Virus record (IMG/VR): IMGVR_UViG_3300032117_002338
Span: 1 to 53,414 of that record
DNA: 53,414 bases
DNA from: a virus
Taxonomy: Duplodnaviria > Caudoviricetes
Reading direction: 5' to 3' (one strand)
Shown here: one piece after another, positions 11,824 through 39,520 of the stretch
How positions within the stretch are numbered: the first letter of the stretch is position 1
Layout of the letters: every line of letters starts with the position of its first letter
Notes under the pieces: model-generated
What the model saw: only the letters and a program-made list of their open reading frames with translations
Told to the model about the DNA's origin: nothing
The model's database searches: none
Program-made: the position numbers and the translations under genes

Positions 11824-11847
11824 ACAGTACTTATGCGAGTGTTTAAT

Positions 11848-11923
11848 GCTCCCATCGTCTAGTGGCCTAGGACACCAGCCTCTCACGTTGGGTACACCGG
11901 TTCGAATCCGGTTGGGAGCGCCA
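11848..11923 (+). tRNA. tRNA-Glu(CTC)
   Basis: CCAGC-CTCTCAC-GTTGG; canonical T arm; CCA. Confidence 0.95.
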
Positions 11924-11925
11924 AC

Positions 11926-12957
11926 TCAGATCGAATCTATGCCATGTGATATCTTGGCATGGGCCAATCTATCCCTTATGCTTGATATCTCCGTCCGCAA
12001 CCGCAGCGCAGCATCATCCTCCACCAACGGTAGCACAGATTCAAGCATGGCCATGTTACTAGCGGAGTAGGAGTGTATGTCTCTCCTATCTATGCGGGAC
12101 AGAACGTTGGATCCGCAGTGGTCCAGATCAAAGAACAGGCTGTCATAGTCAACGGTGATCAACCTCGATGCGCAGGTGATGGATGCCTTGGACAGTTGGT
12201 AGGTTTCGCCGTCCCTGGAATGCTCGGCAGGCGGATCCTCGGCCATGTAATCTCCCAGCAGGTTGTTGGTCACGTATCTCCTGAGGCTGGGTATGGACAT
12301 CCTGTCAACGCCGTGGTTGACGCAGTTGGTGTACCACATCCAGAACATCGGAGTGTGCCCTATCTCCCAGGTGCGAGGTATCCCATGCCCGTCCAGATGC
12401 GCGTTGATGTTGTCCACCACATCGTCATAATCCCGCATCGCCACATCAGGTGGCATCGGGCATCTGTAGAGCATGTCGCTTATGGTTATGGGCCTAGCCT
12501 CCCTGATATCGGTCATGAACATCTTGTAGCATAGCAACGCACCTATCAGCCTGCATCGTTCGGATGGCATCTCGATGGTGATCAGCTCTTCGGTGTGATA
12601 GCCGTATATGCGTTGAGTCAACACGGGCAACCTGTGTCCCATGGATAGGCGAATGCCTGTGTTTGCCGCGCCGGAACCGCCTAGGGGGTTGTATCCATTG
12701 GCCATTATGGCATGGCATGCATCAAGGTCTATCACCGGATCGAGGTCATGGTTTATCAATGTCTCCAGGCTTAGCCAATCTATGTTGGCTGCCTTGTATT
12801 CGTTTATACCCTCCCATACCGCCCCTCCACCGGTGAGGCGGTATCCGAGGAAGTTGCCGCCGGTCCCTGGTGGGAAGCATATGGTGGCATCAAAGCTGGC
12901 TGACATGCCTTTGAAATCCCTGAACAGGGGGTGATCTAGGCTTAGGATCTCATACAT
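11926..12957 (-). CDS. Hypothetical protein with P-loop/sulfotransferase-like N-terminal loop; paralog of 10804..11823
   Basis: TICFPPGTGGNFLGY; shared FFDLDHCGSxVLSRID block. Confidence 0.75.
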   Translation of the reverse strand: MYEILSLDHPLFRDFKGMSASFDATICFPPGTGGNFLGYRLTGGGAVWEGINEYKAANIDWLSLETLINHDLDPVIDLDACHAIMANGYNPLGGSGAANTGIRLSMGHRLPVLTQRIYGYHTEELITIEMPSERCRLIGALLCYKMFMTDIREARPITISDMLYRCPMPPDVAMRDYDDVVDNINAHLDGHGIPRTWEIGHTPMFWMWYTNCVNHGVDRMSIPSLRRYVTNNLLGDYMAEDPPAEHSRDGETYQLSKASITCASRLITVDYDSLFFDLDHCGSNVLSRIDRRDIHSYSASNMAMLESVLPLVEDDAALRLRTEISSIRDRLAHAKISHGIDSI

Positions 12958-12986
12958 CGTGGGATCATCTCTGATATGGTTAAATT

Positions 12987-13060
12987 GGGCCGTTGGTTAA
13001 ACGGGATAACTTCGCCTCGGCAGGGCGACATCGGGGGTTCGACTCCCCCACGGTCCACCA
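12987..13060 (+). tRNA. tRNA-Ala(GGC) with C33
   Basis: G3:U70; TCGCC-TCGGCAG-GGCGA; CCA. Confidence 0.88.
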
Positions 13061-13067
13061 AATACAT

Positions 13068-13142
13068 GGGTGCGTGGCTCAGTGGTAGAGCACCTGCTCG
13101 ACACGCAGGAGGTTGATGGTTCGATCCCATCCGCACCCACCA
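13068..13142 (+). tRNA. tRNA-Val(GAC) with C33
   Basis: CCTGC-TCGACAC-GCAGG; CCA. Confidence 0.9.
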
Positions 13143-13147
13143 CGGCA

Positions 13148-13900
13148 TCAGTTGAACAGGTTGCGAAGGGCCCTGCCCACCAGCAGCTTGACCCTGCTGG
13201 CGAAACCAGGCTTATCCCGATCGATGCGCTGCAGCTCCTGATAGAATGAATAGGCGCGGGTGAGCAGCCTGTTGTACTGCTTCTGTCCCTTGCGGGTATC
13301 CCACTTGAACATGCGTGGCGACAGCTGATGCTTGGAGAATATCTCCTTTATCTCATGCTCCAGGAACCTGGGATCGATCTTGGCCTTGGACATGTCCATC
13401 AATGCCTGGCTGAACCTGGCGTTGATCTCCTCGTGGTATCTGACGTACTCGTCGTACTGGTCGCCGGTGACATCATCGCCCATCTGAGGCCTGGGCGGCA
13501 ACGCCTTGGTCCTGCTCTTGTAGTAGTCCAGGGCATGACGCAGCTCATGCACCAGCGTGCTCTCCATCTTGGAGCGCACGGTCCACTTGGCCTTGCCGAT
13601 CAGCCCGGCCACGTTGAGACCAATGGCGCTGTTTGCGGTATCATATTCACCTCGATGCCGCGGATTGTCCCTGTCGTTGAACATGTAGAATGAGGTCCCG
13701 TCCAACATGGAATGCACCACCGGAGATATGACGCTGGGAGAACGTTTGCCTGATATGTCCTCTAGGTCCTCGAGTGTGAGCGGACCCCTCCTCGGTTTCT
13801 TGGAGAGGATGCCGGCCACGTAGGACGCTATGTCCTGCAGCTCTCGCTCCTCTTGCACGGTCTCGTTTAGGATGTGGTCTGTGATCTCTGATATGCGCAT
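13148..13900 (-). CDS. HExxH zincin-like metalloprotein, late, possible head-internal protein
   Basis: LVHELRHALD...HEEINARF; starts MRISEITDHILNE 4 nt after TAAATA. Confidence 0.72.
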   Translation of the reverse strand: MRISEITDHILNETVQEERELQDIASYVAGILSKKPRRGPLTLEDLEDISGKRSPSVISPVVHSMLDGTSFYMFNDRDNPRHRGEYDTANSAIGLNVAGLIGKAKWTVRSKMESTLVHELRHALDYYKSRTKALPPRPQMGDDVTGDQYDEYVRYHEEINARFSQALMDMSKAKIDPRFLEHEIKEIFSKHQLSPRMFKWDTRKGQKQYNRLLTRAYSFYQELQRIDRDKPGFASRVKLLVGRALRNLFN

Positions 13901-13910
13901 CAAATATTTA

Positions 13911-13987
13911 CCCTGTCTAGTGTTAGTGGCAAAGCACGCGAGTTTGTGGCACTCGTAGGGCTGGTTCGAATCCAGCGGCAGGGACCA
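13911..13987 (+). tRNA. tRNA-His(GTG), no encoded G-1, A73
   Basis: CGAGT-TTGTGGC-ACTCG; CCCTGTC/GGCAGGG-A-CCA. Confidence 0.9.
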
Positions 13988-13997
13988 AAGATAACGG

Positions 13998-14025
13998 TTG
14001 ACGCATCCCACAGAGATGCTATTGT
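13998..14025 (+). promoter_or_regulatory. Internal sigma70-type promoter in tRNA region
   Basis: GTTGACG-16 nt-TATTGT with TGC. Confidence 0.65.
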
Positions 14026-14110
14026 AACCATGTAGACGCTGTTTGACATGGTTAATGACGACGATTGCTTCGGCAGGGCTGCATCGCAGCATACCCAAAA
14101 GGTAATAGCT

Positions 14111-14180
14111 GTAGGTTGGTCTTAACGGAAAAGGCGCCCGCTTTCCGGCGGGAGATGCGGGTTCGAATCCCAGCACCACG
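14111..14180 (+). pseudogene. Degenerate tRNA-like element (Gly/Glu-like loop, no CCA)
   Basis: CCCGC-TTTCCG-GCGGG 6-nt loop; GGGTTCGAATCCC T arm; poor acceptor stem. Confidence 0.5.
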
Positions 14181-14203
14181 ATGTGGCCCTGCCGAGGCAT
14201 ACG

Positions 14204-14360
14204 CTGTCGTTTCGCTTGCACAGGAGGCTGATGGTTGGGAGTAATTGACCCAAACCATGGATGGGTAGTCAGGTGAGAAGGTTCACCGAGAAGGTGTAAC
14301 CGAGGTTGGGTTCGAGTCCCATGATCCATGCTTGCTGTGCAAGCGTGACGGCAACGACAG
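14204..14360 (+). ncRNA. Candidate structured RNA with embedded T-arm
   Basis: 8-bp and 11-bp perfect end-to-end stems; internal TGGG-TTCGAGT-CCCA. Confidence 0.55.
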
Positions 14361-14367
14361 AGACGAC

Positions 14368-14442
14368 GGACTGGTAGCTCAAAGGAGGAGCAGGCCCCTC
14401 ATAAGGGCAAGGTTGAGATATCGTAATTCTCCCGGTCCACCA
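14368..14442 (+). tRNA. tRNA(CAT), Ile2 or Met
   Basis: GCCC-CTCATAA-GGGC; GGACTGG/CCGGTCC-A-CCA; atypical T loop ATCGTAA. Confidence 0.8.
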
Positions 14443-14494
14443 TTCGCCGGATTGCTAATCAGCGGTTTCTAGATCTGCTGAGGTGTTTACCGGT

Positions 14495-14525
14495 AGAGGA
14501 TCCCGACACCTCTATAAAAACGCGG
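14495..14525 (+). ncRNA. preQ1-I-like pseudoknot, copy 1
   Basis: AGAGG-ATCCCGACA-CCTCT-ATAAAAACG-CGG. Confidence 0.55.
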
Positions 14526-14534
14526 AGGAATCAT

Positions 14535-14610
14535 TCCCTGGTAGCTCAACTGGTAGAGCACCGCACTGTTAATGCGGGGGTTGCTGGATCGTACCCAGCC
14601 CTGGGAGCCA
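14535..14610 (+). tRNA. tRNA-Asn(GTT)
   Basis: CCGCA-CTGTTAA-TGCGG; G73, CCA. Confidence 0.92.
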
Positions 14611-14707
14611 ACATGCGCATTGCGACGGCATCACCGTCGCGTTAGCGGAGGGAACCACTCGGCTGTTGGACGCGAGTCCGGCAGGAGCCCTCCGCTGTTG
14701 ACACAAT

Positions 14708-14784
14708 GGACCCTTAGCTCAATTGGTTAGAGCAACCGCCTCTTAAGCGGTAGGTTCCCGGTTCGATCCCGGGAGGGTCTACCA
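14708..14784 (+). tRNA. tRNA-Lys(CTT)
   Basis: ACCGC-CTCTTAA-GCGGT; canonical. Confidence 0.95.
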
Positions 14785-14790
14785 ACACAT

Positions 14791-14865
14791 TGCCCGTTCG
14801 TCTAATCGGTAGGACACCTGACTCTGACTCAGGCAGTCGTGGTTCGAGTCCATGACGGGCAGCCA
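14791..14865 (+). tRNA. tRNA-Gln(CTG)
   Basis: CCTGA-CTCTGAC-TCAGG; canonical. Confidence 0.95.
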
Positions 14866-14870
14866 ACAAC

Positions 14871-14947
14871 GCCCCACTAGCCCAACAGGTAGAGGCGCCT
14901 GCTTCAGGTGCAGGAGGGTTCCCGTTCGAATCGGGAGTGGGGCACCA
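14871..14947 (+). tRNA. tRNA-Leu(CAG), short variable loop
   Basis: CCTGC-TTCAGGT-GCAGG; A73; CCA. Confidence 0.88.
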
Positions 14948-14972
14948 AATCTGACCAGTGCGGAGGTGATGT

Positions 14973-15512
14973 ATGATAGAGAAGCTGACCGATAGGGCTG
15001 GCAGGGCGCTGTACCTCATGCATCTGCTGAATCTCAACCGCGAGGATCGCATGCTGCGGTTCGCCGGCAACATGGATGGCGATGTCATAGTGGGCTACGT
15101 CAACAACATACCCGACACCGATCACCTGCTGGGTTATAGGTACGATGGGGAGCTGGTGGGGTTCGCCCACATCGGCTACATGGGAGATGGCAAGGCCGAG
15201 ATAGGCTTCAGCGTCGATTCGGAGGCCCGAGGCAAGGGCATAGGCGAGAGGCTGTTCAAGTACTGCGTGGACTTCTGCAAGCTCAAGGGGGTTGACACCA
15301 TATACACCTTCTGCCTGCCAACCAACGTCGCGGTGACGAGGATAGTGTCAAAGTCAGGCCTGAGCATCAGCAAGGATGAGCCGGGCACGGCATTGGCCAT
15401 AGATCAGCATCCAGACGTGTTGGCCTACTACACCGTCCTGGGGAACGAATACATGAGGAACATATACAACGTGAACCGCCACTTCATGCGGCCGTTGATG
15501 TTCGATCGATGA
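14973..15512 (+). CDS. GNAT-family acetyltransferase
   Basis: AEIGFSVDSEARGKGIGERLF acetyl-CoA motif; GGAGGTG RBS. Confidence 0.88.
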   Translation: MIEKLTDRAGRALYLMHLLNLNREDRMLRFAGNMDGDVIVGYVNNIPDTDHLLGYRYDGELVGFAHIGYMGDGKAEIGFSVDSEARGKGIGERLFKYCVDFCKLKGVDTIYTFCLPTNVAVTRIVSKSGLSISKDEPGTALAIDQHPDVLAYYTVLGNEYMRNIYNVNRHFMRPLMFDR

Positions 15513-16431
15513 ACCCATCCCTGGCCAAGCGCGACATCCTGGACACAGGCATGTCCATGCCAAGCTGGTGGCGTATGTGCTGCACCGGTATGTATATGGA
15601 TCCCAGATGGGGGAACAGAGCACCAAGCTTTTTCTCCATCGGCTTCCGCCAATGGTTGATGTTCTCATACCCCTCGTACTTGGGGCGGACGACCATGTCG
15701 GGCCACAGGCTGTGCAGGACCAATATCTTCTCGGGGCTGGTTGCGGTTGGCATGGCGGTCATGAAGTAGTCGGGATTGCGCAGCATGCATGCTATGAGAT
15801 CGATCTCTTGGTATGCCGCGAACAACTCAGGCGTGTCACTGAAGAAGTATGGGTAATGCACGGCGTGGTTGCGATGCAACCACTGCAATGGTGGTATGAG
15901 GTTGGTGTTCTTCTTCATGTGTATGCGGCGGTTGATGGTGGTGAATCCCTGCACTCCGCCACCGATGATGGCACAACCTCCGCTATCCTCGACGTGCTCC
16001 ATCAGAGCCAAGACCAGATATCTGTAGACACCGTTTGATTCGTACCCGTCGGCGCAGAAGCGACGGATGGCATCCTCCAGATAGGGGATGGGATCCACCT
16101 CCAACAGCTCATGGGCTATGCCCCGCTCGGTGCAGAAACGCTTGGCGTATCCTATGTCATGCTCGTTCGTGCCATCGGAGAAGCTGATGCTGAGCGCGGA
16201 GAAAGGTATGCCTTGGTCGTGGAAGGCCCTGGCGACGACCTCGCTGTCTATGCCGCCGCTCATGCACACTACCATGGGGCGTTTGGTTGATTCGGCTATG
16301 CGCCGTGCCTCCAGATATATCTCCTCCTTCCATGGCAGCAAAGGTCGGGTGATGGATCTAAAGCTGATGCCAAACCTATCCGCTATCGCAGCGGGGTTCC
16401 TGCCATCGAATCTGTAATCAAAGCATATCAT
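15484..16431 (-). CDS. PP-loop (adenine nucleotide alpha-hydrolase) ATPase-like protein
   Basis: VVCMSGGIDSEVV PP-loop motif. Confidence 0.75.
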   Translation of the reverse strand: MICFDYRFDGRNPAAIADRFGISFRSITRPLLPWKEEIYLEARRIAESTKRPMVVCMSGGIDSEVVARAFHDQGIPFSALSISFSDGTNEHDIGYAKRFCTERGIAHELLEVDPIPYLEDAIRRFCADGYESNGVYRYLVLALMEHVEDSGGCAIIGGGVQGFTTINRRIHMKKNTNLIPPLQWLHRNHAVHYPYFFSDTPELFAAYQEIDLIACMLRNPDYFMTAMPTATSPEKILVLHSLWPDMVVRPKYEGYENINHWRKPMEKKLGALFPHLGSIYIPVQHIRHQLGMDMPVSRMSRLARDGFIDRTSTAA

Positions 16432-16476
16432 GACAGCAGTATGCCAGCATGGCATGCATCAGGTCAAATAGTCAAA

Positions 16477-16553
16477 GCCGCCGTGGCCCAACTGGCAGAG
16501 GCGCTAGGTCGAGAGCCTAGATGGTGTTGGTTCAAATCCAACCGGCGGCACCA
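16477..16553 (+). tRNA. tRNA-Leu(GAG) with C33, short variable loop
   Basis: CTAGG-TCGAGAG-CCTAG; CCA. Confidence 0.88.
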
Positions 16554-16559
16554 ATCATC

Positions 16560-16637
16560 GCCCTCATGGCCCAACTGGCAAGAGGCGCCGGGTTCAAACT
16601 CCGGATGTTGTAAGTTCGAATCTTACTGAGGGCACCA
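16560..16637 (+). tRNA. tRNA-Leu(CAA), short variable loop
   Basis: CCGGG-TTCAAAC-TCCGG; CCA. Confidence 0.9.
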
Positions 16638-16646
16638 AGTTTACAT

Positions 16647-16720
16647 AGGTCGTAAGTGTTATGGTAGCACGCTGAGCTCCAACCTCAGAAGCGCGGGTTC
16701 GACTCCTGCACGACCTGCCA
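16647..16720 (+). tRNA. tRNA-Trp(CCA)
   Basis: CTGAG-CTCCAAC-CTCAG; G73; CCA. Confidence 0.92.
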
Positions 16721-16731
16721 TAAATACCAGC

Positions 16732-16899
16732 ATGAAGATATCAGAGATACTCAAGCCGATGACCATCATGGGGGCCACTGACAGCCACGGGCATGTCAAC
16801 AGGGCCAAGGCTGAGCGCATCCCAGACCCTCGAGGTTGGTTCGCCAAGAACAAGCGAGCCTTGAGGAAGAATCGCAAACCAACCGGCTCCGTTAGGTAA
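16732..16899 (+). CDS. 55 aa basic late protein (MKISEIL...)
   Basis: ATG 5 nt after TAAATA; K/R-rich C-terminus; not in supplied ORF track. Confidence 0.65.
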   Translation: MKISEILKPMTIMGATDSHGHVNRAKAERIPDPRGWFAKNKRALRKNRKPTGSVR

Positions 16900-16975
16900 G
16901 TGTTATACTAGCTGATTCGTAACCAGCACGTGAACGCTGGCGATCATCAATGTTGCCATTGGGCCAAATCAATGG

Positions 16976-17003
16976 TTGACACCGACAGCAGAGATGCTAT
17001 CGT
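16976..17003 (+). promoter_or_regulatory. Internal sigma70-type promoter
   Basis: GTTGACA-16 nt-TATCGT with TGC. Confidence 0.65.
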
Positions 17004-17040
17004 AGATGAGTTGAGAGACACAGTTGAAAGGTTTCTTTAC

Positions 17041-17137
17041 CGGTTTCGGTCGTCCGGTCCACCGCCGGCAAGCATGGTAATGCCCGATTGAGTTGCGGAC
17101 GCTGCCAAGCCCAAGGGTGAGCATGTGGATGAAACCG
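17041..17137 (+). ncRNA. Candidate structured RNA
   Basis: CGGTTTC/GAAACCG and GTCCAC/GTGGAT nested stems just after promoter. Confidence 0.4.
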
Positions 17138-17146
17138 AGCAGTTTA

Positions 17147-17221
17147 GGGCCGTTGGTGATAACGGGAGCACGACGCGTTTGCACCGCGTAGGCCGGGGTT
17201 CGACTCCCCGACGGTCCACCA
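17147..17221 (+). tRNA. tRNA-Ala(TGC), second copy
   Basis: ACGCG-TTTGCAC-CGCGT; G3:U70; CCA. Confidence 0.9.
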
Positions 17222-17225
17222 ATTT

Positions 17226-17301
17226 GCGCATGTCGATCTCTGGTGAGATCACCTGTCTGTCTAACAGGTCTAGGCGAGTTCGATCCTCGTCATGCGCGCC
17301 A
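17226..17301 (+). tRNA. tRNA-Asp(GTC)
   Basis: CCTGT-CTGTCTA-ACAGG; G73; CCA. Confidence 0.9.
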
Positions 17302-17326
17302 AATTTAACCAGAGAGGACTACGAGA

Positions 17327-17599
17327 ATGTCTAGCGACGAAGATAACGAAGGCAAGATGAAGGTGGTGTTCGCACCCGGGTCCTTTGATGGGTTCGAGGG
17401 GACGCAAGAGGAGCTCGACGCGCTCGTGGCGGAGATCATGGGCATGTTGGAGAGCGGCGATCTGCTGGAGAAGGCTGTGGTCCTTGACGAGGCATCGTTC
17501 GATGAGCTGCCCGATGACGTCAAGGAGAGCATCATGCGAGATCTCGCCAACATCAACGAGGACGGCGACATCGACGTCAAACCTCGCCTGCTCAACTGA
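17327..17599 (+). CDS. Highly acidic hypothetical protein
   Basis: GAGGA RBS; 90 aa D/E-rich. Confidence 0.78.
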   Translation: MSSDEDNEGKMKVVFAPGSFDGFEGTQEELDALVAEIMGMLESGDLLEKAVVLDEASFDELPDDVKESIMRDLANINEDGDIDVKPRLLN

Positions 17600-17605
17600 C
17601 ACAGA

Positions 17606-17679
17606 TGGCGTGTAGCTCAATGGGAGAGCATTGGTCCGATAAACCAAAGACGAAGGTTCGATTCCTTCCTCGCCAACCA
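17606..17679 (+). tRNA. tRNA-Ile(GAT) with C33
   Basis: TTGGT-CCGATAA-ACCAA; CCA. Confidence 0.88.
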
Positions 17680-17686
17680 ACATCAT

Positions 17687-17762
17687 TCGGGGATAGTTCA
17701 ACTGGAAGAACGCTGGCCTTTGAAGCCGGATGCTGGTGGTTCGAACCCATCTCCCCGAACCA
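17687..17762 (+). tRNA. tRNA-Gln(TTG)
   Basis: CTGGC-CTTTGAA-GCCGG; CCA. Confidence 0.9.
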
Positions 17763-17765
17763 AAT

Positions 17766-17849
17766 GGACCAGTAGCGTAAAGGCAGGCAAGTGCCGCCAC
17801 CGGATTTTTAACCCGGCCGCAGGGGGAGCGTTACCTCACTGGTCCTCCA
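17766..17849 (+). tRNA. tRNA-Lys(TTT), atypical (enlarged D region, non-canonical T loop)
   Basis: GGACCAG/CTGGTCC-T-CCA; CCGGA-TTTTTAA-CCCGG. Confidence 0.65.
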
Positions 17850-17851
17850 AT

Positions 17852-17930
17852 GCCCACGTAGGCCAACAGGTTAGAGTCACCGGACTTAAAATCCGGACAG
17901 TGTCGGGTTCGAATCCCACCGTGGGCACCA
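17852..17930 (+). tRNA. tRNA-Leu(TAA), short variable loop
   Basis: CCGGA-CTTAAAA-TCCGG; CCA. Confidence 0.9.
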
Positions 17931-18018
17931 GTCAGATCGTGGAAAACACGTCAAATACCGGCATATGGTTGACATATGCTGGATCGCTGCTATATACTAA
18001 TGACACGATGAGAATTTC

Positions 18019-18093
18019 GGTGTGGTGGCAGAGCATTTATGCGCCAGCCTGCAAAGCTGGATTAGGTAGGTGAGACTCCTACCCACACCTCCA
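18019..18093 (+). tRNA. tRNA-Cys(GCA)
   Basis: CCAGC-CTGCAAA-GCTGG; U73; CCA. Confidence 0.9.
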
Positions 18094-18138
18094 ACATTTG
18101 ACCATCAAATGGTCCTTTCCTCGATGAAGCAGGTCAGA

Positions 18139-18167
18139 TTGACACGGCGCCGAGGGTCGAGCATAAT
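18139..18167 (+). promoter_or_regulatory. Sigma70-type promoter upstream of pseudoknot copy 2
   Basis: TTGACA-17 nt-CATAAT. Confidence 0.7.
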
Positions 18168-18190
18168 TGATTCAACCAGAATGTTATGCC

Positions 18191-18221
18191 AGTGGAAGCC
18201 GTCACCACTATAAACAATCGG
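18191..18221 (+). ncRNA. preQ1-I-like pseudoknot, copy 2
   Basis: AGTGG-AAGCCGTCA-CCACT-ATAAACAAT-CGG; same spacing as copy 1 with compensatory change. Confidence 0.55.
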
Positions 18222-18230
18222 TGCGAAATT

Positions 18231-18332
18231 TGGGAGTACGGGTGCATGGTAACATGTTGCTCCGTCCGGCTTAACCGTTCACACAGCGGGCCGGACACTC
18301 ACCGGGTCGAGTGTGCGATGCCGGTGCTCCCA
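18231..18332 (+). ncRNA. Candidate four-way-junction RNA (cloverleaf-like, no CCA)
   Basis: TGGGAGTAC/GTGCTCCCA closing stem; CATG/CATG, GTCCGGC/GCCGGAC, CACTC/GAGTG arms. Confidence 0.5.
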
Positions 18333-18343
18333 TGCTAGTTTAT

Positions 18344-18427
18344 TCCTGGGTGGCGGAATGGTAAACGCACCGCACTGTTAATGCGACGCCGAAAGGTTTG
18401 CAGGTTCGAGTCCTGCTCCAGGAGCCA
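18344..18427 (+). tRNA. tRNA-Asn(GTT) with long variable arm
   Basis: CGCA-CTGTTAA-TGCG; extra arm CGCCGAAAGGTTT; G73; CCA. Confidence 0.88.
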
Positions 18428-18495
18428 ACGATCAAAGTTGTGGGTGACATAGTTGTAACGGAACCCTCGCATATCAACCGGCTGGGAGGCATGGC

Positions 18496-18840
18496 ATGAA
18501 ACAGATGCTGATAATGCGCAAGGATCTAAACATGCGCAAGGGCAAGCTGATCGCACAGGGTGCGCATGCCAGCCTCAAGGCCACTTTGGAGAACCTGGAT
18601 CATCCCAGCGTCAAGGAATGGCTGGCTGGCAGGTTCACCAAGATAGCGGTCAGCGTGGACAGCGAGGCCGAGATGTTTGACATCCTCGGCAAGGCACGCG
18701 CAGCCGGATTGATCACCGCGCAGATAACCGACGCAGGGCTCACGGAGTTCAACGGGGTGCCAACCAACACCTGCATCGCGGTGGGGCCGGCATCCGCTGA
18801 GGATCTGGCCCCCATCACCGGCCATCTCAAGCTTCTGTGA
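18496..18840 (+). CDS. pth2: Peptidyl-tRNA hydrolase Pth2
   Basis: KQ...RKDLNMRKGKLIAQGAHA, ITDAGLTEF, TCIAVGP, ITGHLKLL. Confidence 0.95.
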   Translation: MKQMLIMRKDLNMRKGKLIAQGAHASLKATLENLDHPSVKEWLAGRFTKIAVSVDSEAEMFDILGKARAAGLITAQITDAGLTEFNGVPTNTCIAVGPASAEDLAPITGHLKLL

Positions 18841-18842
18841 CC

Positions 18843-19661
18843 TCAACCCAATCTATCGATCAGGGGCCTCATGGCCTCCTCGAATTCGTCGCAGTAGCGT
18901 AGCAGCTCCTCGCCATTGGTGAAATACCTCAGCGCACGCTCCCTGTGTGGCATGTGGTTCTTGGCGTAGTATGTCCTAGCCTCACCTGACATGCCTATGG
19001 CCTCTATGGTCGGGGTGGGCAGCTGATCAAACCAAACCAACTGGTCCAACAGATCTAGGTTGCTGTGCAACCAATCGTTGTGCCAAAGCACCTGCTCGGA
19101 ATAGCTCCTCAACGATCCCAATCTGATCTCCTTGGGAGTGATGCTCTCGCCCAACCTCCTGTCGAGCTCGGATCTGTCGTAGCTCCAGATGTTGAAGTAG
19201 TCTCCCATGGCCAGGCTTATGAGGGCGGCACCAACGTCGCGGCGATTGAGCCCTATCTTTATCACGCTGCCATCGTTTATGAGATGATCGTATATGGGCA
19301 CATCGTTGCCTTCCAGCAGATCCTCGGCGCCCATCTTGATTATGAAGAACCGACGCTCGTGTGCATCCAGATGGCGCAGCTTTGATCTGACCAGATATGT
19401 TGGGGTGGGTCGGCGTATGAGGCTGACGCTGCCGTCGGCGAATGGTATGCTCTCCCTGATGACGCTGTGAGTCGACACGCCGTTGACATCGCGCTGGTAG
19501 TGGTTGCAACCCAGATACTCTGACAGGTTGACGCTATCGATGCCTAGCCCTGTGACATGGTTATGTATCATGTCACACAGCGCTGATGTGCCGAATCGCC
19601 AGCTGCCGAAGACGACCAATCCCCTCTTGCCGGCCATTGAATCCGGTGGGTTGGTAGACAT
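18843..19661 (-). CDS. Sulfotransferase-like P-loop protein
   Basis: VVFGSWRFGTSALC (PAPS-loop-like), LNRRD..AALIS; TAAATA upstream. Confidence 0.65.
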   Translation of the reverse strand: MSTNPPDSMAGKRGLVVFGSWRFGTSALCDMIHNHVTGLGIDSVNLSEYLGCNHYQRDVNGVSTHSVIRESIPFADGSVSLIRRPTPTYLVRSKLRHLDAHERRFFIIKMGAEDLLEGNDVPIYDHLINDGSVIKIGLNRRDVGAALISLAMGDYFNIWSYDRSELDRRLGESITPKEIRLGSLRSYSEQVLWHNDWLHSNLDLLDQLVWFDQLPTPTIEAIGMSGEARTYYAKNHMPHRERALRYFTNGEELLRYCDEFEEAMRPLIDRLG

Positions 19662-19707
19662 GTGGGATCCTCCATGCTATAATATGTGCATATTTATCCA
19701 GTGGTCA

Positions 19708-19795
19708 GGAAGGGTGGTAGAGCGGTCTATTACGTCGGTCTTGAAAGCCGAAGTACCGAAAGGTACCGTGGGTTCAAATCCCACCCCTTCCGCCA
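19708..19795 (+). tRNA. tRNA-Ser(TGA)
   Basis: TCGGT-CTTGAAA-GCCGA; long variable arm; G73. Confidence 0.95.
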
Positions 19796-19847
19796 AATGA
19801 TACGCATCGTTAAATAAAAATGGGCACGGTGCCCGGAGGAATGTACG

Positions 19848-20069
19848 ATGGAACAGTTCGATCGATTCATAGGCAAGGTCTATGATGCGGCCACGGCCGA
19901 TCAGATAGCCGACATGGCCAAGCAACATGGATGGAGGATCCTACCATGGCCAGAGGGCGTGTCGCAGGTCAGCTACGACGAGGGCTGCCTCACAATATAC
20001 CTCAACAACGACATAGACGGCATCATCACACGCTTCCAGCTTGGAGCGGGTGAATCCCAGTCGGCCTAA
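19848..20069 (+). CDS. Small hypothetical protein; paralog of 1189..1392
   Basis: GGAGGA RBS; FIGKVY...LTIYL...ITRFQLG. Confidence 0.7.
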   Translation: MEQFDRFIGKVYDAATADQIADMAKQHGWRILPWPEGVSQVSYDEGCLTIYLNNDIDGIITRFQLGAGESQSA

Positions 20070-20303
20070 GTGGCTGGCCAAGGATGGCACGGAATTCGAG
20101 GGGCAGAGTTGATTCACGGATGAGTTGTCACTGCTCACCCAAGCCAAGGCTTAGAGGTGATCACACAGCCACATCGAGGTCGGGAGATGGGATACGCCGT
20201 GCAATGACCCTCGGGTGCATTGCAGCCACTATCCAATCATAACCTTGTAAACCCGGACTCTGAAAAGGGGATGCATACCCGTTCCCCTCGGATGTTGATT
20301 GGA
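20069..20303 (+). ncRNA. Candidate structured RNA region
   Basis: AGTGGCTG/CAGCCACT, TGCAATG/CATTGCA, TCCAATCA/TGATTGGA, AGGGGA/TCCCCT stems; no credible ORF. Confidence 0.4.
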
Positions 20304-20395
20304 GCATGGTTGATGATCATGAAGATAGCGTTGATGGCATCATTGCTGGCGGCCGCGGCCGCCGTGATAACGGCCATGCTGACACACAGGGATTA

Positions 20396-20482
20396 GGAGC
20401 GTGTACCGAACGGGGTTCGGCACCGATTGGAAATCGGTTGATGCCATCTTGGCATGCGGATCGAGACCGCCGCGCTCCGCCA
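20396..20482 (+). tRNA. tRNA-Ser(GGA)
   Basis: ACCGA-TTGGAAA-TCGGT; long arm; G73; CCA. Confidence 0.85.
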
Positions 20483-20489
20483 CACACAC

Positions 20490-20581
20490 GGAGGGGTAAC
20501 CCAGGCGGCCCTGGGCACGGATTCGAAACCCGTTGGTGCCATTCGCTTGGCATGGAGATCGACACTGCCACCCCTCCGCCA
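20490..20581 (+). tRNA. tRNA-Ser(CGA)
   Basis: ACGGA-TTCGAAA-CCCGT; long arm; G73; CCA. Confidence 0.8.
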
Positions 20582-20659
20582 TCTATTGTTTGACCTAGAA
20601 CTGCGCATGCGGCATAATACGCATGGGGATGATACCCCGGAAGCATGAGGAGACATGTA

Positions 20660-20812
20660 ATGGCAGATCCTAGAAGCAAACCCAAAGCGGCCAAGACCAA
20701 GGACAGCAAGGCCCCGCACGTGATGCAGGAGCAGTCCAAGCTGACGGCCATGAAGGCCACGCAGGTGCAGGCCAAGCCTCAGATCCAGAAGAACGTGGGA
20801 CGAGGTCGCTAA
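20660..20812 (+). CDS. 50 aa basic K/Q-rich protein
   Basis: GAGGAG RBS; MADPRSKPKAAKTK...VGRGR; not in supplied track. Confidence 0.65.
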   Translation: MADPRSKPKAAKTKDSKAPHVMQEQSKLTAMKATQVQAKPQIQKNVGRGR

Positions 20813-20856
20813 CATGGCCATGCGTCGCCTCGCGGCGGACACACGGAGCGTCAGGC

Positions 20857-21732
20857 ATGGATAGGTTTTTCATAGAATTCGGATCAGATGATGATAGGTT
20901 CACACTGTGCTTCGGGGTCCACGACACATCACTGGCAAGCAGATGGTTTGATTGCCTGAGAGCGTCCGTTGCCCACGACCAACATCCAAGGGAGGACGAC
21001 AGGCTGTATGGTTTCCCAGCCAATGGTTGGTCGGAGGCAAGGATAGTGGACGGGATCAACGCATGCATAGATGCCGTCAATGACCACGGCGGCTATCGCA
21101 TAGATGATAGGGCATCCGTGGATTGCGGCCAGGATGCGTTCAACCGCCTGCACACGCACTTCGAGGCCATGAGGGGTAGCGTGCTGAACCCCAGCGAACT
21201 CTTTAGGCAGGCCCCCGATCACCTTCGGCGAACGATAGAATCCTACAACGTGCTCATACACAGATGGGAGAATTGGCGCAACAACGGCGGCAGGGGATCA
21301 GCGATGATGGTCGTCACTTTCGACGACCAACCAAGGTATCCACTGTTGGAGGAGGACTACGATCTGTTCACCATCGACAACAGGTTCGGAGATGCCTATC
21401 TCAGCTATTGCGAGGTCGGCAAGACGCTTACAGACGTGTTCGAGGATGACGATCACGATGTAGGCGGAGAGGCTATCATACCACAGCGATATTACTCTTC
21501 CGCATTCTCCGTCAAGTTCTGGGACGGCCATTCAAAGGGATACATGGACAGGTTTAACGCCTGGTGGGATAGGAACGAGGATAGGTTGGCAGGGTTAGGG
21601 TTCAACCGAGGCGACAGGCATCTATCCATAGGTTACATACCAGTGGCGAGCATCATATCAGACCTGCCAAGGGCGGCCCTGCTGGAGGCGATAGGTAGGT
21701 TTGATAGGATCAGCAGGGTGTACGTGGCCTGA
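20857..21732 (+). CDS. Hypothetical protein
   Basis: 291 aa ORF with phage-like codon usage. Confidence 0.8.
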   Translation: MDRFFIEFGSDDDRFTLCFGVHDTSLASRWFDCLRASVAHDQHPREDDRLYGFPANGWSEARIVDGINACIDAVNDHGGYRIDDRASVDCGQDAFNRLHTHFEAMRGSVLNPSELFRQAPDHLRRTIESYNVLIHRWENWRNNGGRGSAMMVVTFDDQPRYPLLEEDYDLFTIDNRFGDAYLSYCEVGKTLTDVFEDDDHDVGGEAIIPQRYYSSAFSVKFWDGHSKGYMDRFNAWWDRNEDRLAGLGFNRGDRHLSIGYIPVASIISDLPRAALLEAIGRFDRISRVYVA

Positions 21733-21832
21733 TGTCAATACCAGATCACATCAGGCTGTTATCGCCATATGCGATCATGAGGATAATATCCACACGATGG
21801 CCTCTGACGTGATAAATACCAACATAAAGATT

Positions 21833-21906
21833 GCGGGCATGATGTAATGGTAGCCTGTCACCTTGCCATGGTGAAAGCCCGGGTTCGATTCCCGGTGCCC
21901 GCTCCA
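21833..21906 (+). tRNA. tRNA-Gly(GCC)
   Basis: TCACC-TTGCCAT-GGTGA; U73; CCA. Confidence 0.92.
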
Positions 21907-22120
21907 ACCAATTCCGTCCCAGGCGGCGAGTCGCCGTACCACATTGGGTTGCATGAGATCCCCATGCCAGCAGGCATAGAGGGTCTTGCGATCAGGACCA
22001 ACCTGATCCAAGCGTGTGCTGAAGCACGAAATCGTTCAGTAGGCCACATGATGTGAAGGTGGCAGCGGGCGGCGCCGCTAAAGGGAGATGGGTCCCCACG
22101 CCGATCATAAATATCCGACC

Positions 22121-22759
22121 ATGGTTAAGATAGCAGAGATAGAACGCAACTACATCGAGAAGGACGAGCTGGGACTGCCTCGCGGCAGGGGCAGGTACAA
22201 GGGCAAGCTGCCCATCAATGTGTTTGGTTACGAGGCTCTGTATGGCAAGGGATCGAGGGGACACAGGGCGGTCACCCTATGGGATGGCAGGCGATGCGTG
22301 GCAGAGCTAACCATGGAACCGGTCACCTACCACGGCATCAAGGCATACAGCGTGGAGACCGCCATGGTCAATCCCAAGTACCAAGGCAGGGGCATAGGGG
22401 CGGAGCTGTACAAGACGTTGGTCTCCGATATGGGGATCGTGTTGGTCAGCAACCAGAGCCATAGCCCGGGGGCGAGGAAGACCTGGCTGAGATTGAGCAC
22501 CGATCCCTCGGTCAACGTGTATGGTTTCAACCTATTCTACAACACAGTGTTCAAGGTCGGTCCCAATAGCACGCGAACGGAGCTGAAAGGCAAGGGCCAC
22601 GATCTCTATGACGAGGATGGCACCGGTGTGGTCATGGTGCGCAAGGGCAGCCATGAGGACAAGATAATGGCGAGCCTGCTCAAGCTCAGCGCCAAGAAGC
22701 ATGAGGCCGACCCGCTTGACACCAATTGGGGATTCGCAGACACCCTAGAGCCGAGCTGA
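22121..22759 (+). CDS. GNAT-fold protein, late, possible head-internal protein
   Basis: VNPKYQGRGIGAELY; QSHSPGARKTW; starts MVKIAEIE 7 nt after TAAATA. Confidence 0.8.
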   Translation: MVKIAEIERNYIEKDELGLPRGRGRYKGKLPINVFGYEALYGKGSRGHRAVTLWDGRRCVAELTMEPVTYHGIKAYSVETAMVNPKYQGRGIGAELYKTLVSDMGIVLVSNQSHSPGARKTWLRLSTDPSVNVYGFNLFYNTVFKVGPNSTRTELKGKGHDLYDEDGTGVVMVRKGSHEDKIMASLLKLSAKKHEADPLDTNWGFADTLEPS

Positions 22760-22837
22760 CAGTCATCATATAGATTGCGTTCAAACGTGACCCACGATAT
22801 AATGATCAAGGGTTAGATTAACACAAGAGGGCGCGAG

Positions 22838-23386
22838 ATGGCAGAACACAAGGATCACCTGGACGACAATAACATCTTCCTGTTCATGGAGGATTTCACC
22901 AACAAATCGGTGAAGCCGGTGATAGATTGGATACTGCAAAAGAATCTCATGTCCAACAAGAGCCGGCCAAAGCATCTAACCCTGATGATCAACAGCCCCG
23001 GCGGCGAGGTACACTCGGCGTTCGCCCTCATCGACATGATGAAGGGCAGCAAGATCCCCGTTCGCACGGTGGGTCTGGGCATGATAGCCAGCTGCGGGCT
23101 GTTGACATTCATGAGCGGAGAGAAGGGACATAGGATCCTCACACCCAACACCAGCATACTCAGCCATCAGTACAGCTGGGGCAGCTACGGCAAGGAGCAC
23201 GAGCTGTTCGCCAGGGTGCGCGAGTTTGAGCTCAGCACCGAACGCATGCTGGAGCACTACAAGAAATGCACTGGCATGGACGAGGCCGGCATACGCAAGT
23301 ATCTGCTGCCCGCCAAGGACGTGTGGCTGTCGGCCGAGGAGGCCGTCAGGTATGGCATAGCGGATGAGATCAGGGAGACCTACTGA
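22838..23386 (+). CDS. clpP: ClpP-like serine protease subunit
   Basis: INSPGGEV, GMIASCG (Ser), ILSHQ (His), DVWLSAEEA (Asp). Confidence 0.92.
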   Translation: MAEHKDHLDDNNIFLFMEDFTNKSVKPVIDWILQKNLMSNKSRPKHLTLMINSPGGEVHSAFALIDMMKGSKIPVRTVGLGMIASCGLLTFMSGEKGHRILTPNTSILSHQYSWGSYGKEHELFARVREFELSTERMLEHYKKCTGMDEAGIRKYLLPAKDVWLSAEEAVRYGIADEIRETY

Positions 23387-23802
23387 TGCGCATAGGGTTC
23401 ACCTGCAGCGCGTTCGATTTGTGCCATTCTGGGCACGTGGCCATGCTGCGCGAGGCCAAGGATCAGTGCGATTACCTCATCTGCGGCCTCCAGGTTGATC
23501 CGACCATAGATCGAACCAGCAAGAACAAGCCGGTGCAGACCATAGTGGAGCGCTACACGCAGCTGTCTGCGGTTAGGTATGTGGATGAGATCGTGCCGTA
23601 CGTGACCGAGGCTGATCTCGAGGACATATTGGCCATGTATCCCATCAACGTGCGGATACTGGGCGAGGAGTATCGAGACAAGGATTTCACCGGACGTGAC
23701 ATCTGCAAGAAGCGCGGCATCGATCTGCACTTCAACCGCAGGGATCACAGGTTCAGCACCACCGAGCTGCGCAACAGAATATCGTTGACAGGCAAGCCGT
23801 AA
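23386..23802 (+). CDS. Cytidylyltransferase (TagD/glycerol-3-phosphate type)
   Basis: GFTCSAFDLCHSGH HxGH motif, ERY, FSTT. Confidence 0.9.
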   Translation: MRIGFTCSAFDLCHSGHVAMLREAKDQCDYLICGLQVDPTIDRTSKNKPVQTIVERYTQLSAVRYVDEIVPYVTEADLEDILAMYPINVRILGEEYRDKDFTGRDICKKRGIDLHFNRRDHRFSTTELRNRISLTGKP

Positions 23803-23826
23803 ACGGTTATATTACATGCATAAAAC

Positions 23827-23900
23827 GCGGGGTTGGCATATGGGTTGTGCTCCAGCCTTCCAAGCTGGCTAAACGAGTTCGAGTCTCGTACCCCGCTCCA
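23827..23900 (+). tRNA. tRNA-Gly(TCC)
   Basis: CCAGC-CTTCCAA-GCTGG; U73; CCA. Confidence 0.92.
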
Positions 23901-23988
23901 TAGTTCGATCTGTCACCGACCCTTTCGTGGTTGGTCGCCAAGTCACAGAGGACATTCGAGCCGACGGCGTGAGGTTCAGCGTTTATAT

Positions 23989-24065
23989 TGCGGGTTAGAG
24001 AAGTGGTCCATCTCGCCAGCCTCATAAGCTGGAGATCCCTGGTTCGAATCCAGGACCCGCAACCA
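23989..24065 (+). tRNA. tRNA-Met(CAT), initiator-like body
   Basis: TGCGGGT/ACCCGCA-A-CCA; CCAGC-CTCATAA-GCTGG. Confidence 0.9.
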
Positions 24066-24110
24066 AGATTTGATAAGTATCGCAACCACTTAGACACGGG
24101 GAGGTGTGAT

Positions 24111-24269
24111 ATGAAACAGGGCAAGTTGGTCCGCAGGCTGTACGAGGCTTGCTTGGAGCACGATTTGGTGAAGCTGCAGGAGCTCCGCATGGAGGAGTTC
24201 GCCAAGATCATCAAGCGCAAATCCAAGGGCAAGGGTTTCGATGCCAAGTGGACGGTGGTTAGGTTCTAA
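24111..24269 (+). CDS. 52 aa basic hypothetical protein
   Basis: GGAGGTG RBS; TAAGTA upstream. Confidence 0.7.
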   Translation: MKQGKLVRRLYEACLEHDLVKLQELRMEEFAKIIKRKSKGKGFDAKWTVVRF

Positions 24270-24278
24270 GGGTTAGAT

Positions 24279-24353
24279 GGGTGGTTAGCTCAGAGGCAGA
24301 GCATCGGTGTTACATACCGACGGTCGGGATTTCAAAATTCTCACCACCTACCA
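24279..24353 (+). tRNA. tRNA-Val(TAC)
   Basis: TCGGT-GTTACAT-ACCGA; CCA. Confidence 0.88.
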
Positions 24354-24359
24354 ACGAAT

Positions 24360-24443
24360 GCGCTTGTGGCGAAATTGGGTAGACGCATCAGATTTAGGTT
24401 CTGACGGGCAACCGTGGGGGTTCGAGCCCCTCCAAGCGCACCA
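24360..24443 (+). tRNA. tRNA-Leu(TAG)
   Basis: TCAGA-TTTAGGT-TCTGA; long arm; CCA. Confidence 0.93.
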
Positions 24444-24461
24444 CAAACATAGGGGTTGAGC

Positions 24462-24638
24462 ATGGCCACCTGCAAGGTGATATACCACAGAGAGTTCCCC
24501 CTGGATATCATAGAATACGTGAACACGCTGGCCGAGGGCCTCAGGCGCACCAACAGGGGCGACGCATACGTCGTGGATGTGATCCACGACAAGACGGGCG
24601 AACCTCTGATAAAGATCAGGAAGATAGGCAAGGGATAG
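24462..24638 (+). CDS. Small hypothetical protein
   Basis: 58 aa, AGGGG RBS. Confidence 0.6.
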   Translation: MATCKVIYHREFPLDIIEYVNTLAEGLRRTNRGDAYVVDVIHDKTGEPLIKIRKIGKG

Positions 24639-24641
24639 AGC

Positions 24642-24836
24642 ATGACCGATTTCGAGACCAAATACCGCACGTGGCACACTCGCCTCAGCTACATCAAGAG
24701 CGCGATGCGCATCGCTTCATGCGGTCTATGCTGTTTCTCCGTCTGCGTGATAGGCAGCGTCGAGACCAGCGTGTTGGCCCTGGCTGGTGGATTGTTCATG
24801 GCCGAGCTGATCGGCATCGCCGAGGAATTTGTGTGA
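24642..24836 (+). CDS. Small membrane protein
   Basis: Two hydrophobic segments; ends AELIGIAEEFV. Confidence 0.7.
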   Translation: MTDFETKYRTWHTRLSYIKSAMRIASCGLCCFSVCVIGSVETSVLALAGGLFMAELIGIAEEFV

Positions 24837-24917
24837 TTGATATTGCTAAGCGTTGGCGTCGTCAGTAAATATTGTCAGTGCACGATGAGTTCGTGCATGC
24901 AAACGGAGGACACTGAC

Positions 24918-24995
24918 ATGGCATGGAACACACCTTCCATCGTTGAGATCTGCGCGGGTATGGAAGTCACATCCTACTCCTCGGCGGAGATCTGA
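24918..24995 (+). CDS. pqqA: Pyrroloquinoline quinone precursor peptide PqqA (MAWNTPSIVEICAGMEVTSYSSAEI)
   Basis: GGAGGA RBS; W-x-x-P leader and GMEVTSY E-x3-Y core of alphaproteobacterial PqqA; not in supplied track. Confidence 0.92.
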   Translation: MAWNTPSIVEICAGMEVTSYSSAEI

Positions 24996-25019
24996 GAACA
25001 AGCTGACGTATTGATACGG

Positions 25020-25053
25020 ATGGGAGAGATGATTCATCTCTCCCATTTCATTT
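25020..25053 (+). terminator. Terminator after pqqA
   Basis: ATGGGAGAGAT-GATTC-ATCTCTCCCAT then TTCATTT. Confidence 0.75.
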
Positions 25054-25098
25054 GACGGCAGGCTAGACCATACCGGGTGCGTGCGCTATAATTCGACG

Positions 25099-25353: not shown

Positions 25354-25520
25354 TGCTGCGCAAGGCATGGCGGTATTGGGCTAAGGCCCTGGGGGAGAAG
25401 GCATCCGACGATTCAGCCGAGGCTGACAGGGTGGCGCTGATAAGGACGGCCATAGTGCTGTGCTACATCATCACCAACTGCTTCATCGTCGCCGGCGTCA
25501 TCAAGCACTGGAACCAATAG
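25353..25520 (+). CDS. Small phage membrane protein (WRYWAKALGEKA...IRT type)
   Basis: 55 aa, TGATG overlap, C-terminal hydrophobic helix. Confidence 0.7.
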   Translation: MLRKAWRYWAKALGEKASDDSAEADRVALIRTAIVLCYIITNCFIVAGVIKHWNQ

Positions 25521-38820: not shown

Positions 38821-38905
38821 ACAACGATCAACGAGATGGCTATACTATCCGATAGCTTGATTCGTGCAACGTGTGACACGCCATGCAAGCACAGGAGGAT
38901 ATCAG

Positions 38906-39520
38906 ATGTTTAACCTAGGATCGTACACCGGGAGATTGGTGCTGTTGCACATCGCCATCATCGCCCTATCAAACTACCTCGTCACCATACCGCTGACCCT
39001 GCTGGGCATACAGCTGACATGGGCCGCGTTCACCTTCCCACTGATCGTCGTGGCAACCGACCTCACGGTTAGGCTCAGCGACAAGTACAAGGCGCGTCGC
39101 ATCGTGGCCATCGCATACATCCCAGCCATCATCGCCAGCGTGCTGGTGGTTTGGTACACGGGGGCGCCGACCAGCGTGGCGGCACGCATCGGCATCGCCA
39201 GCGGTACGGCCTACCTGTTTAGCAACCTGCTGGACGTCTACGTGTTCCAGAAGGTGCGAGAGCGCCTCAGCCAATGGTGGGCGGCCCCGGCGCTTAGCAG
39301 CATAGCTGCCAACATCATCGACACGTTCGCGTTCTTCGCGGTGGCATTCTACGCCAGCGAGAACGTGTACATGAGGGAGAATTGGATTGGGGTGGCCGAG
39401 GGCCAGACGCTGACCAAGATCATCGTCAGCGCATTGGTCATACTACCCACATATGGCGTGCTGCTCAGCTATCTCACCAAGAGATTGGGGCAATCGCTGA
39501 CCGGCAAGGTCGCCTCGTAA
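38906..39520 (+). CDS. yhhQ: Queuosine-precursor (preQ0/preQ1) transporter, VUT family
   Basis: HIAIIALSNYLV, TWAAFTFP..ATDLTVR, ARIGIAS..AY..LLDVYVF, WWAAPALS, IDTFAFF. Confidence 0.9.
   Translation: MFNLGSYTGRLVLLHIAIIALSNYLVTIPLTLLGIQLTWAAFTFPLIVVATDLTVRLSDKYKARRIVAIAYIPAIIASVLVVWYTGAPTSVAARIGIASGTAYLFSNLLDVYVFQKVRERLSQWWAAPALSSIAANIIDTFAFFAVAFYASENVYMRENWIGVAEGQTLTKIIVSALVILPTYGVLLSYLTKRLGQSLTGKVAS

Follow-up and report, generated by a model that had tools for sequence, protein, structure and literature searches.

Class I preQ1 riboswitches (preQ1-I, RF00522) are small H-type pseudoknots in which the loop of a hairpin pairs with a stretch 3' of an A-rich strand, and they reside in the 5' leaders of genes for queuosine synthesis or transport. 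The Rfam PreQ1 consensus reads aGuGG, a 12-nt loop and then CCaCuAUAAAAA. The base 5' of the 3' strand of the hairpin stem (P1) is the C that reads preQ1; it occurs as UC in type I and as AC in types II and III (PMC11625349, PMC10622847). Another catalogued RNA to which our sequences can be compared is the DUF805 RNA motif (RF03081), a candidate cis-regulator (Weinberg et al. 2017), which according to its Rfam model comprises a GUGG...CCAC stem, a 10-nt loop that contains CC and has A as its last base, and AAAAACGG downstream of the hairpin. With respect to location, the tRNA cluster of phage T4 harbors the non-tRNA small RNAs RNAC and RNAD, whose role is unexplained (PMC3014915), and the large phage-associated RNAs GOLLD and ROOL are found near tRNA genes (PMC5737381) and form RNA-only homo-oligomers (PMC12286853).

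Here, we compared these systems with two copies of a short pseudoknot module in a phage tRNA array. The DNA analyzed (the window) comprises all 53,414 bases of an IMG/VR virus record and is contained in lake and freshwater metagenome DNA runs. As the record is estimated to be 13% complete, it represents a fragment of a giant phage. ARAGORN called 30 tRNA genes in the window, all of them on the plus strand, and the 29 Rfam matches at gathering thresholds were tRNAs without exception. The surroundings of the array encode PTH2, NAPRTase, Sir2, PrkA and ClpP along with several radical SAM proteins; PrkA and its neighbor genes occupy 44435-49931. NAPRTase, cytidylyltransferase-like and Sir2-family proteins are encoded within 3-1046, 23386-23802 and 41647-42378, which suggests a phage NAD salvage or counter-defence set. 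Seven sites within 9000-26500 match the sigma-70 promoter consensus at 10 or more of 12 positions, in every case on the plus strand. Near-consensus sites, again exclusively on this strand, are located ahead of small tRNA groups (17969-17998, 19655-19683, 23785-23813 and others), and the array is therefore apparently transcribed as several short units by the host polymerase. The 380 nt between tRNA-His and the tRNA-Met called by ARAGORN (13988-14367) contain two T-arm-like GGTTCGA motifs and fold at -166.9 kcal/mol; they may hold hidden degenerate or intron-bearing tRNAs, or more structured RNAs. The tRNA-Met itself (14368-14442) lies below the Rfam cut-off. The features of the two loci are compiled in Table 1.

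Table 1 Features discussed in the text, given in window positions.
Feature	Position	Strand	Remarks
Full-length family element holding copy 1	14443..14534	+	about 92 nt; from the alignment of variants
Pa of the full element	14446-14450 / 14490-14494	+	from the variant alignment
Pb of the full element	14459-14463 / 14477-14481	+	loop palindrome TCTAGA
P1 of copy 1	14495-14499 / 14509-14513	+	tail and P2 strand reach 14526
First tRNA-Asn(GTT)	14535..14610	+	ARAGORN and Rfam
Sigma-70-type promoter-like site TTGACA-17-CATAAT	18139..18167	+	11/12 consensus matches
Copy 2 pseudoknot module	18191..18221	+	only P1 and tail align to the family model; without Pa/Pb domain
A/U-rich single-stranded spacer TGCGAAATT	18222..18230	+	similar to the family's GGAATTT-type spacers, which measure 7-10 nt
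Cloverleaf-like structured RNA, closing stem and three arms	18231..18332	+	102 nt; MFE -48.4 kcal/mol, z -2.39
Second tRNA-Asn(GTT)	18344..18427	+	84 nt; 54.3 bits; unusually long variable arm, 11-nt insertion
Peptidyl-tRNA hydrolase PTH2 gene	18496..18840	+	PF01981, E 1.4e-32; next same-strand ORF
YhhQ-type queuosine-precursor transporter gene	38864..39520	+	TIGR00697, 113.6 bits (cut-off 50.95)

An earlier note on this DNA had described the two copies as pseudoknots of identical architecture, and this reading of the sequence was confirmed. Both copies consist of segments of 5/9/5/9/3 nt, copy 1 (14495-14525) being AGAGG-ATCCCGACA-CCTCT-ATAAAAACG-CGG and copy 2 being composed of AGTGG (18191-18195), the loop AAGCCGTCA (18196-18204), CCACT (18205-18209), the A-rich strand ATAAACAAT (18210-18218) and CGG (18219-18221). 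CCG is present at loop positions 4-6 of both, and at pair 3-17 of P1 the A-T of copy 1 is replaced by T-A in copy 2, a compensatory swap as had been stated. A gap-free alignment of the two copies yields 23 identical positions out of 31. The 13 bases GGATCCCGACACC of copy 1, which comprise the top of P1 and the loop, recur exactly and on the same strand at 46075-46087 inside the PrkA gene (E 0.13), probably by chance.

The promoter proposed for copy 2 is present as a sequence as well and belongs to the seven sites mentioned above, with TTGACA at 18139-18144, a 17-nt spacer and CATAAT at 18162-18167, and transcription would start near 18174-18175, about 16 nt ahead of copy 2. For three strain contigs, which diverge by about 0.3%, no differences are listed within either hexamer. 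Likewise, no change is listed across 18168-18350 in the strain contigs from X4, X7 and X8, which is uninformative at this level of divergence. A candidate sigma-70 promoter inside the module was discarded; the -35 region of the family matches at 2/6 positions. The flanks of the two copies, unrelated according to the note, are not entirely so: the GAAATTT spacer after copy 2 resembles the GGAATTT found in the family. Similarly, the second tRNA-Asn(GTT) is indeed the next called tRNA; however, 122 nt intervene and fold cloverleaf-like, so that this tRNA is not the immediate neighbor of copy 2. Its 11-nt insertion forms a long variable arm, GCC-GAAA-GGT, which is unusual for a tRNA-Asn, whereas the first tRNA-Asn has exactly the same anticodon arm. 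Of 75 aligned positions, 59 agree between the two Asn genes, which brings them no closer to each other than each is to its best non-Asn tRNA, and this level of identity neither shows nor excludes a block duplication of module and tRNA-Asn.

Copy 1 turned out to be the 3' module of a structured RNA of about 92 nt, which is placed 1 nt after the tRNA-Met called by ARAGORN and 8 nt before tRNA-Asn. By IUPAC scans of IMG/VR and JGI metagenome contigs, we gathered 17 distinct variants of this RNA in uncultured phage and lake contigs. Their alignment supports the helices of the element. In Pa, one pair covaries (C-G in 10 and U-A in 7 variants), and in Pb all five pairs change on both sides. In this alignment, 95.4% of the cells are paired, compared to 83.3% in shuffles and at most 51.9% with slid partners. 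The Pb loop (14464-14476 in the window) contains a 6-nt Watson-Crick palindrome in 16 of the 17 variants compared to 7.8% of shuffled loops; the palindrome of the seventeenth requires G-U pairs. Four kinds occur, TCTAGA, CCTAGG, CCATGG and GCGCGC (seen in L003, L011, L060 and others). The retention of palindromes suggests loop-loop self-pairing of two RNA molecules, that is, putative kissing-loop dimers, and in this respect recalls the GOLLD and ROOL oligomers. The latter are, however, hundreds of nucleotides long rather than about 90, and their own Rfam models found no match here. Copy 2 lacks the palindromic loop of the full element. The likeness to RNAC and RNAD of T4 is one of location inside a phage tRNA gene cluster.

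The P1 helix and the tail AUAAAAAC are invariant in 17/17 variants. A scan in which the three middle P1 pairs were left free retrieved no further family member; it returned 12 family loci, all with AGAGG/CCTCT, and two unrelated loci. One element per record was found in G007 (100% complete), G006 (92%) and the fragments G003-G005, G008 and G009, while the closest relatives of the window as judged by PTH2, G001 (100% complete) and G002 (85%), have neither the element nor the copy-2 region. The family pattern had no match in 185,579 prokaryote genomes, blastn of the element against 50,697 GenBank phage records found nothing, and a literature search found no publication on a tRNA-array pseudoknot family. 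As far as sequence comparison can tell, the family is an uncatalogued structured RNA of about 90 nt which is carried by some lake giant phages.

Outside the family, eleven loci (nine distinct) with GAGG-N9-CCTCTATAAAAAC at first appeared riboswitch-like, with 4-5 bp of loop-tail pairing. These candidates were rejected: their count is near a rough chance estimate, a complement of at least 5 bp occurs in 2/9 compared to 4.6% expected, which is not clearly above the null, and the downstream ORFs, judged by eye, are not queuosine genes. A separate motif was observed on the minus strand of L055, a phage that also has the full family element. There, positions 2549-2580 of the reverse complement read ACCCC-ACAACTAA-GGGGT-ATAAACAAT-TAG. 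The tail is that of copy 2, loop and tail are complementary over 4 bp, and the start codon (ATG) of an ORF containing a CxxC motif follows after 13 nt; neither Rfam nor model R2 matched this motif.

The note had further claimed that the pseudoknot is under selection. The pairing between CCG in the loop and CGG in the tail is by itself no evidence for this, since a complement of at least 3 bp occurs in 72% of random pairs of a 9-nt loop and a 16-nt tail. Within the family, no pair of this register is changed on both sides, and the third pair is broken in 9/17 variants. A register one base off, in which loop positions 7-10 pair with tail positions 32-29 (P2), has two of its four pairs changed on both sides and 83.8% of its cells paired. 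The loop-tail knot is thus modestly supported for the family by two covarying pairs. This register does not suit copy 2, where it would place G opposite G at pair 8-31; copy 2 fits the CCG:CGG register only, with three Watson-Crick pairs and one G-U. The claim of selection therefore holds for the module as a family, given the invariance of P1 and tail in 17/17 variants and the two covarying P2 pairs; for copy 2 itself, the P1 double change is a single event, and the register of the family differs by one base from CCG:CGG.

We next consider how copy 2 relates to the family. A covariance model built from five relatives of copy 1 only, and hence without copy 2, recognized copy 2 with 19.1 bits (E 0.05 over 445,506 bases). 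The same model (R1) gives 114.7 bits for copy 1 and skips 47 Pa/Pb positions in its alignment to copy 2. Correspondingly, copy 2 has the P1 hairpin, the AUAAA tail, a loop-complementary stretch and an A/U spacer before a tRNA-like fold, and upstream of its module the two helices Pa and Pb are missing, as is the palindrome in the loop of Pb. The bases that are invariant in the family (C9, G11, A14, AUAAA and G30) are all retained, and P1 is maintained via one double change, for which a rough estimate puts chance at about 0.09. A motif pattern search gave two matches compared to 0.02 expected; this search is circular, as these same two copies had served to define the pattern. Taken together with its leader, the hairpin of copy 2 does not exceed shuffles in stability (z -0.27), and in a nested alternative fold the CGG pairs with the 5' leader instead of the loop. 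The search for another minimal module was negative both across 433,285 bases from related loci and in the whole records G001, G006, G007, G008, G009 and G010, and copy 2 is therefore lineage-specific.

Downstream of copy 2, the closing stem of the cloverleaf-like fold begins 9 nt past the CGG, and two of 200 shuffles were equally stable as this fold. It is not recognized as a tRNA: ARAGORN made no call, even in intron mode and with a lowered threshold, and Rfam had no match, including the tRNA model RF00005. Contigs of four DNA runs were compared with 13900-19000 of the window, and one of 922 nt from run X4, which belongs to another phage, matched exactly the interval 18192-18333, with 14 differences (about 90% identity) and unlike flanks. 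Since the match is limited to this interval, module and cloverleaf behave like one conserved 142-nt unit, and it is this unit rather than the module that has tRNA-Asn as its neighbor. No further relatives of the unit were found by blastn in related loci or GenBank phages, and three IMG/VR pattern scans starting from the cloverleaf gave ten chance matches once and no match twice.

These data bear on the possibility that copy 2 has no function of its own, whether it arose from copy 1 by partial duplication and is now decaying or resembles it by chance. In line with this are the missing Pa/Pb domain, the 8/31 positions at which it differs from copy 1, the failure to find a second minimal module in the related loci or the six whole records, a fold no stabler than shuffles and the ease with which a 3-bp complement arises at random. 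Against this, copy 2 was recovered over 445 kb by a model that is independent of it, it kept P1 through a double change together with all family-invariant bases, it lies on the tRNA strand 9 nt ahead of a stable fold as in the family, and the unit of which it is part is preserved in another phage. We regard a functionless copy 2 as unlikely.

The explanation that we favor, and to which we lend moderate confidence, is that copy 2 represents a paralogue of the family's 3' module which has diverged and stands alone, and that this module is a ligand-independent structural part of RNAs that are cut from tRNA arrays. The module would consist of a 5-bp hairpin whose 9-nt loop pairs past an A-rich strand starting with AUAAA, giving a compact H-type pseudoknot of the class I preQ1 shape. 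In the present phage, it would have been joined 5' of a different, cloverleaf-like RNA behind a sigma-70-type promoter of its own. The array would be transcribed from promoters of this type and then be cut by the tRNA-processing enzymes of the host, with RNase P cleaving 7-10 nt past the knot, where the following tRNA or tRNA-like fold begins. The A/U-rich spacer of this length would leave RNase P room at the 5' end of the next tRNA, and the cut would leave the knot near the new 3' end of the released RNA. With its A-rich strand lying in the P1 groove, as in class I preQ1 aptamers, the knot may act as a ligand-independent cap or fold-insulator which stops exonucleases, separates neighboring folds and thereby defines and protects the end of the RNA, and which would not sense queuosine precursors. 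At copy 2, the module would head the primary transcript and the cloverleaf would come next. Both the processing by RNase P and the protective role of the knot are inferred. The invariance of P1 and tail across diverged phages would be superfluous for a mere cap and hints at an additional sequence-specific partner of the two, such as a protein, the ribosome or a ligand.

One alternative regards the module as an aptamer that descends from class I preQ1 riboswitches and senses a ligand; folded or unfolded 7-10 nt upstream of a tRNA, it would tune RNase P cleavage or polymerase pausing according to the supply of a 7-deazapurine or some other small molecule. Its likeness to this class is genuine, though incomplete. 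Both the 5-bp P1 and the AUAAAAA behind it agree with the RF00522 consensus: P1 of copy 2 is identical to that of the Rfam consensus, P1 of copy 1 departs from it only at the covarying middle pair, and the first seven tail bases of both copies equal it. Such strict invariance of P1 and tail is typical of aptamer cores, the pairing of a pyrimidine-rich loop with a purine-rich, Shine-Dalgarno-like (GGAG-like) stretch recalls type III preQ1-I as described in PMC10622847, and transcriptional pausing can respond to preQ1-I pseudoknots according to PMC11625349. However, the loop comprises 9 nt in both copies compared to 12 in the Rfam consensus, and the PreQ1 gathering cut-off of 39 is far from reached, with 8.9 bits for copy 1 (P1 and tail only) and no match for copy 2 at E values up to 10. 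Moreover, the position of the specificity C is occupied by A in 18/18 sequences (17 family variants and copy 2), the base before it varies between C and U within the family, and the family sits between tRNA genes, where there is no terminator or start codon for the knot to gate. Compared by bit score, the best Rfam look-alike of copy 1 is the DUF805 motif, with which it has in common a CC-containing loop that ends in A as well as the AAAAACGG tail; here as well, the score stays below the cut-off (15.6-16.4 bits compared to 51.1), the motif's second hairpin is missing, no DUF805 gene lies downstream and copy 2 was not matched.

The earlier note had proposed a link to queuosine. The observations within the window stand: the YhhQ transporter is encoded, and the two copies precede Asn genes, the only two among the 30 tRNAs and each preceded by one copy. 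By our own arithmetic, which assumes random placement, the chance of this is about 0.002. No module was found upstream of yhhQ. Among the 17 variants, a tRNA starts 7-10 nt past the knot in eight (Arg three times, Phe twice, and Asn, Lys and Glu) and 76-311 nt past it in four (Thr, Ile and Glu twice); for the remaining five, no downstream tRNA was present in the fetched DNA, leaving 12 for the count. A tRNA ends 1-4 nt ahead of the element in four of 17. Such close spacing on both sides indicates that the element fills the slot of a tRNA, and which tRNA comes next differs between variants. The enrichment upstream of tRNAs with GUN anticodons, suggested as a check in relatives, did not emerge, as only one of 12 next tRNAs was of this kind (Asn, once), an outcome that the note itself had named as refuting, and the Vut_1/YhhQ family was absent from five of five records searched, among them the element-bearing G006 (92%), G007 (100%) and G008. 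With the next tRNA varying, Vut_1 missing in relatives and A in place of the specificity C, the notion of a queuosine-linked RNA system was not borne out, and a tRNA-Asn or queuosine link beyond this one genome is not supported. An Asn gene lies at most two genes from the element in four type I lineages (W, L003, L005/L009 and L013), which looks like shared array order rather than function, and we read the position of both copies ahead of Asn genes in the window as coincidence or shared ancestry. Taken together, an aptamer role appears decidedly improbable. The specific version in which a working sensor descended from class I preQ1 riboswitches has its pocket changed to A, and a metabolite decides whether RNase P releases the next tRNA or tRNA-like RNA, is very improbable; if true, it would be a riboswitch that controls RNA processing and not a protein-coding gene.

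Type III antitoxin units have the general shape of a pseudoknot with a single-stranded A-rich tract, and mimics of them are borne by phages. This shape, which the module resembles, would allow for a decoy, in which the hairpin and the A-rich strand bind or mimic a protein or ribosome target, for instance as an antitoxin mimic that disarms an abortive-infection RNase or as a site for a tRNA-handling enzyme. A sequence invariance that exceeds the needs of pairing and a window rich in counter-defence-like NAD genes (NAPRTase, Sir2, cytidylyltransferase-like) are compatible with such a role. Nevertheless, antitoxin RNAs are tandem pseudoknot units beside a toxin gene, while neither copy shows a tandem repeat, there is one copy per genome and no Rfam antitoxin family matches, and the idea strikes us as quite doubtful. 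Finally, that the invariant 25-30 bp represent a DNA-level signal, be it a promoter read by a phage RNA polymerase or a different site of protein binding, is hardly credible in spite of the high sequence invariance, a TATAAA 17 bp past ATGCCA in copy 2 and a CACTATA in the same copy that recalls T7-group promoter cores, as a promoter class would require more than the single copy present in a complete genome of 360 kb and the sequence abuts covarying RNA helices and is strand-locked with tRNAs.

Phage tRNA arrays are usually annotated as containing tRNAs alone. Here, a conserved and covarying RNA of about 90 nt fills a tRNA slot, and the knot at its 3' end has the outward form of the smallest riboswitch known, minus the base that reads the ligand. 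While the queuosine story does not survive the comparison with relatives, the alignments indicate that copy 2 is a lineage-specific partial copy of the module of this uncatalogued phage RNA family, so that the same knot appears to be reused ahead of a second, unrelated structured RNA. The locus thereby offers a system for asking how non-tRNA passengers of tRNA operons are excised and stabilized, and whether riboswitch folds get recycled as ligand-free building blocks.
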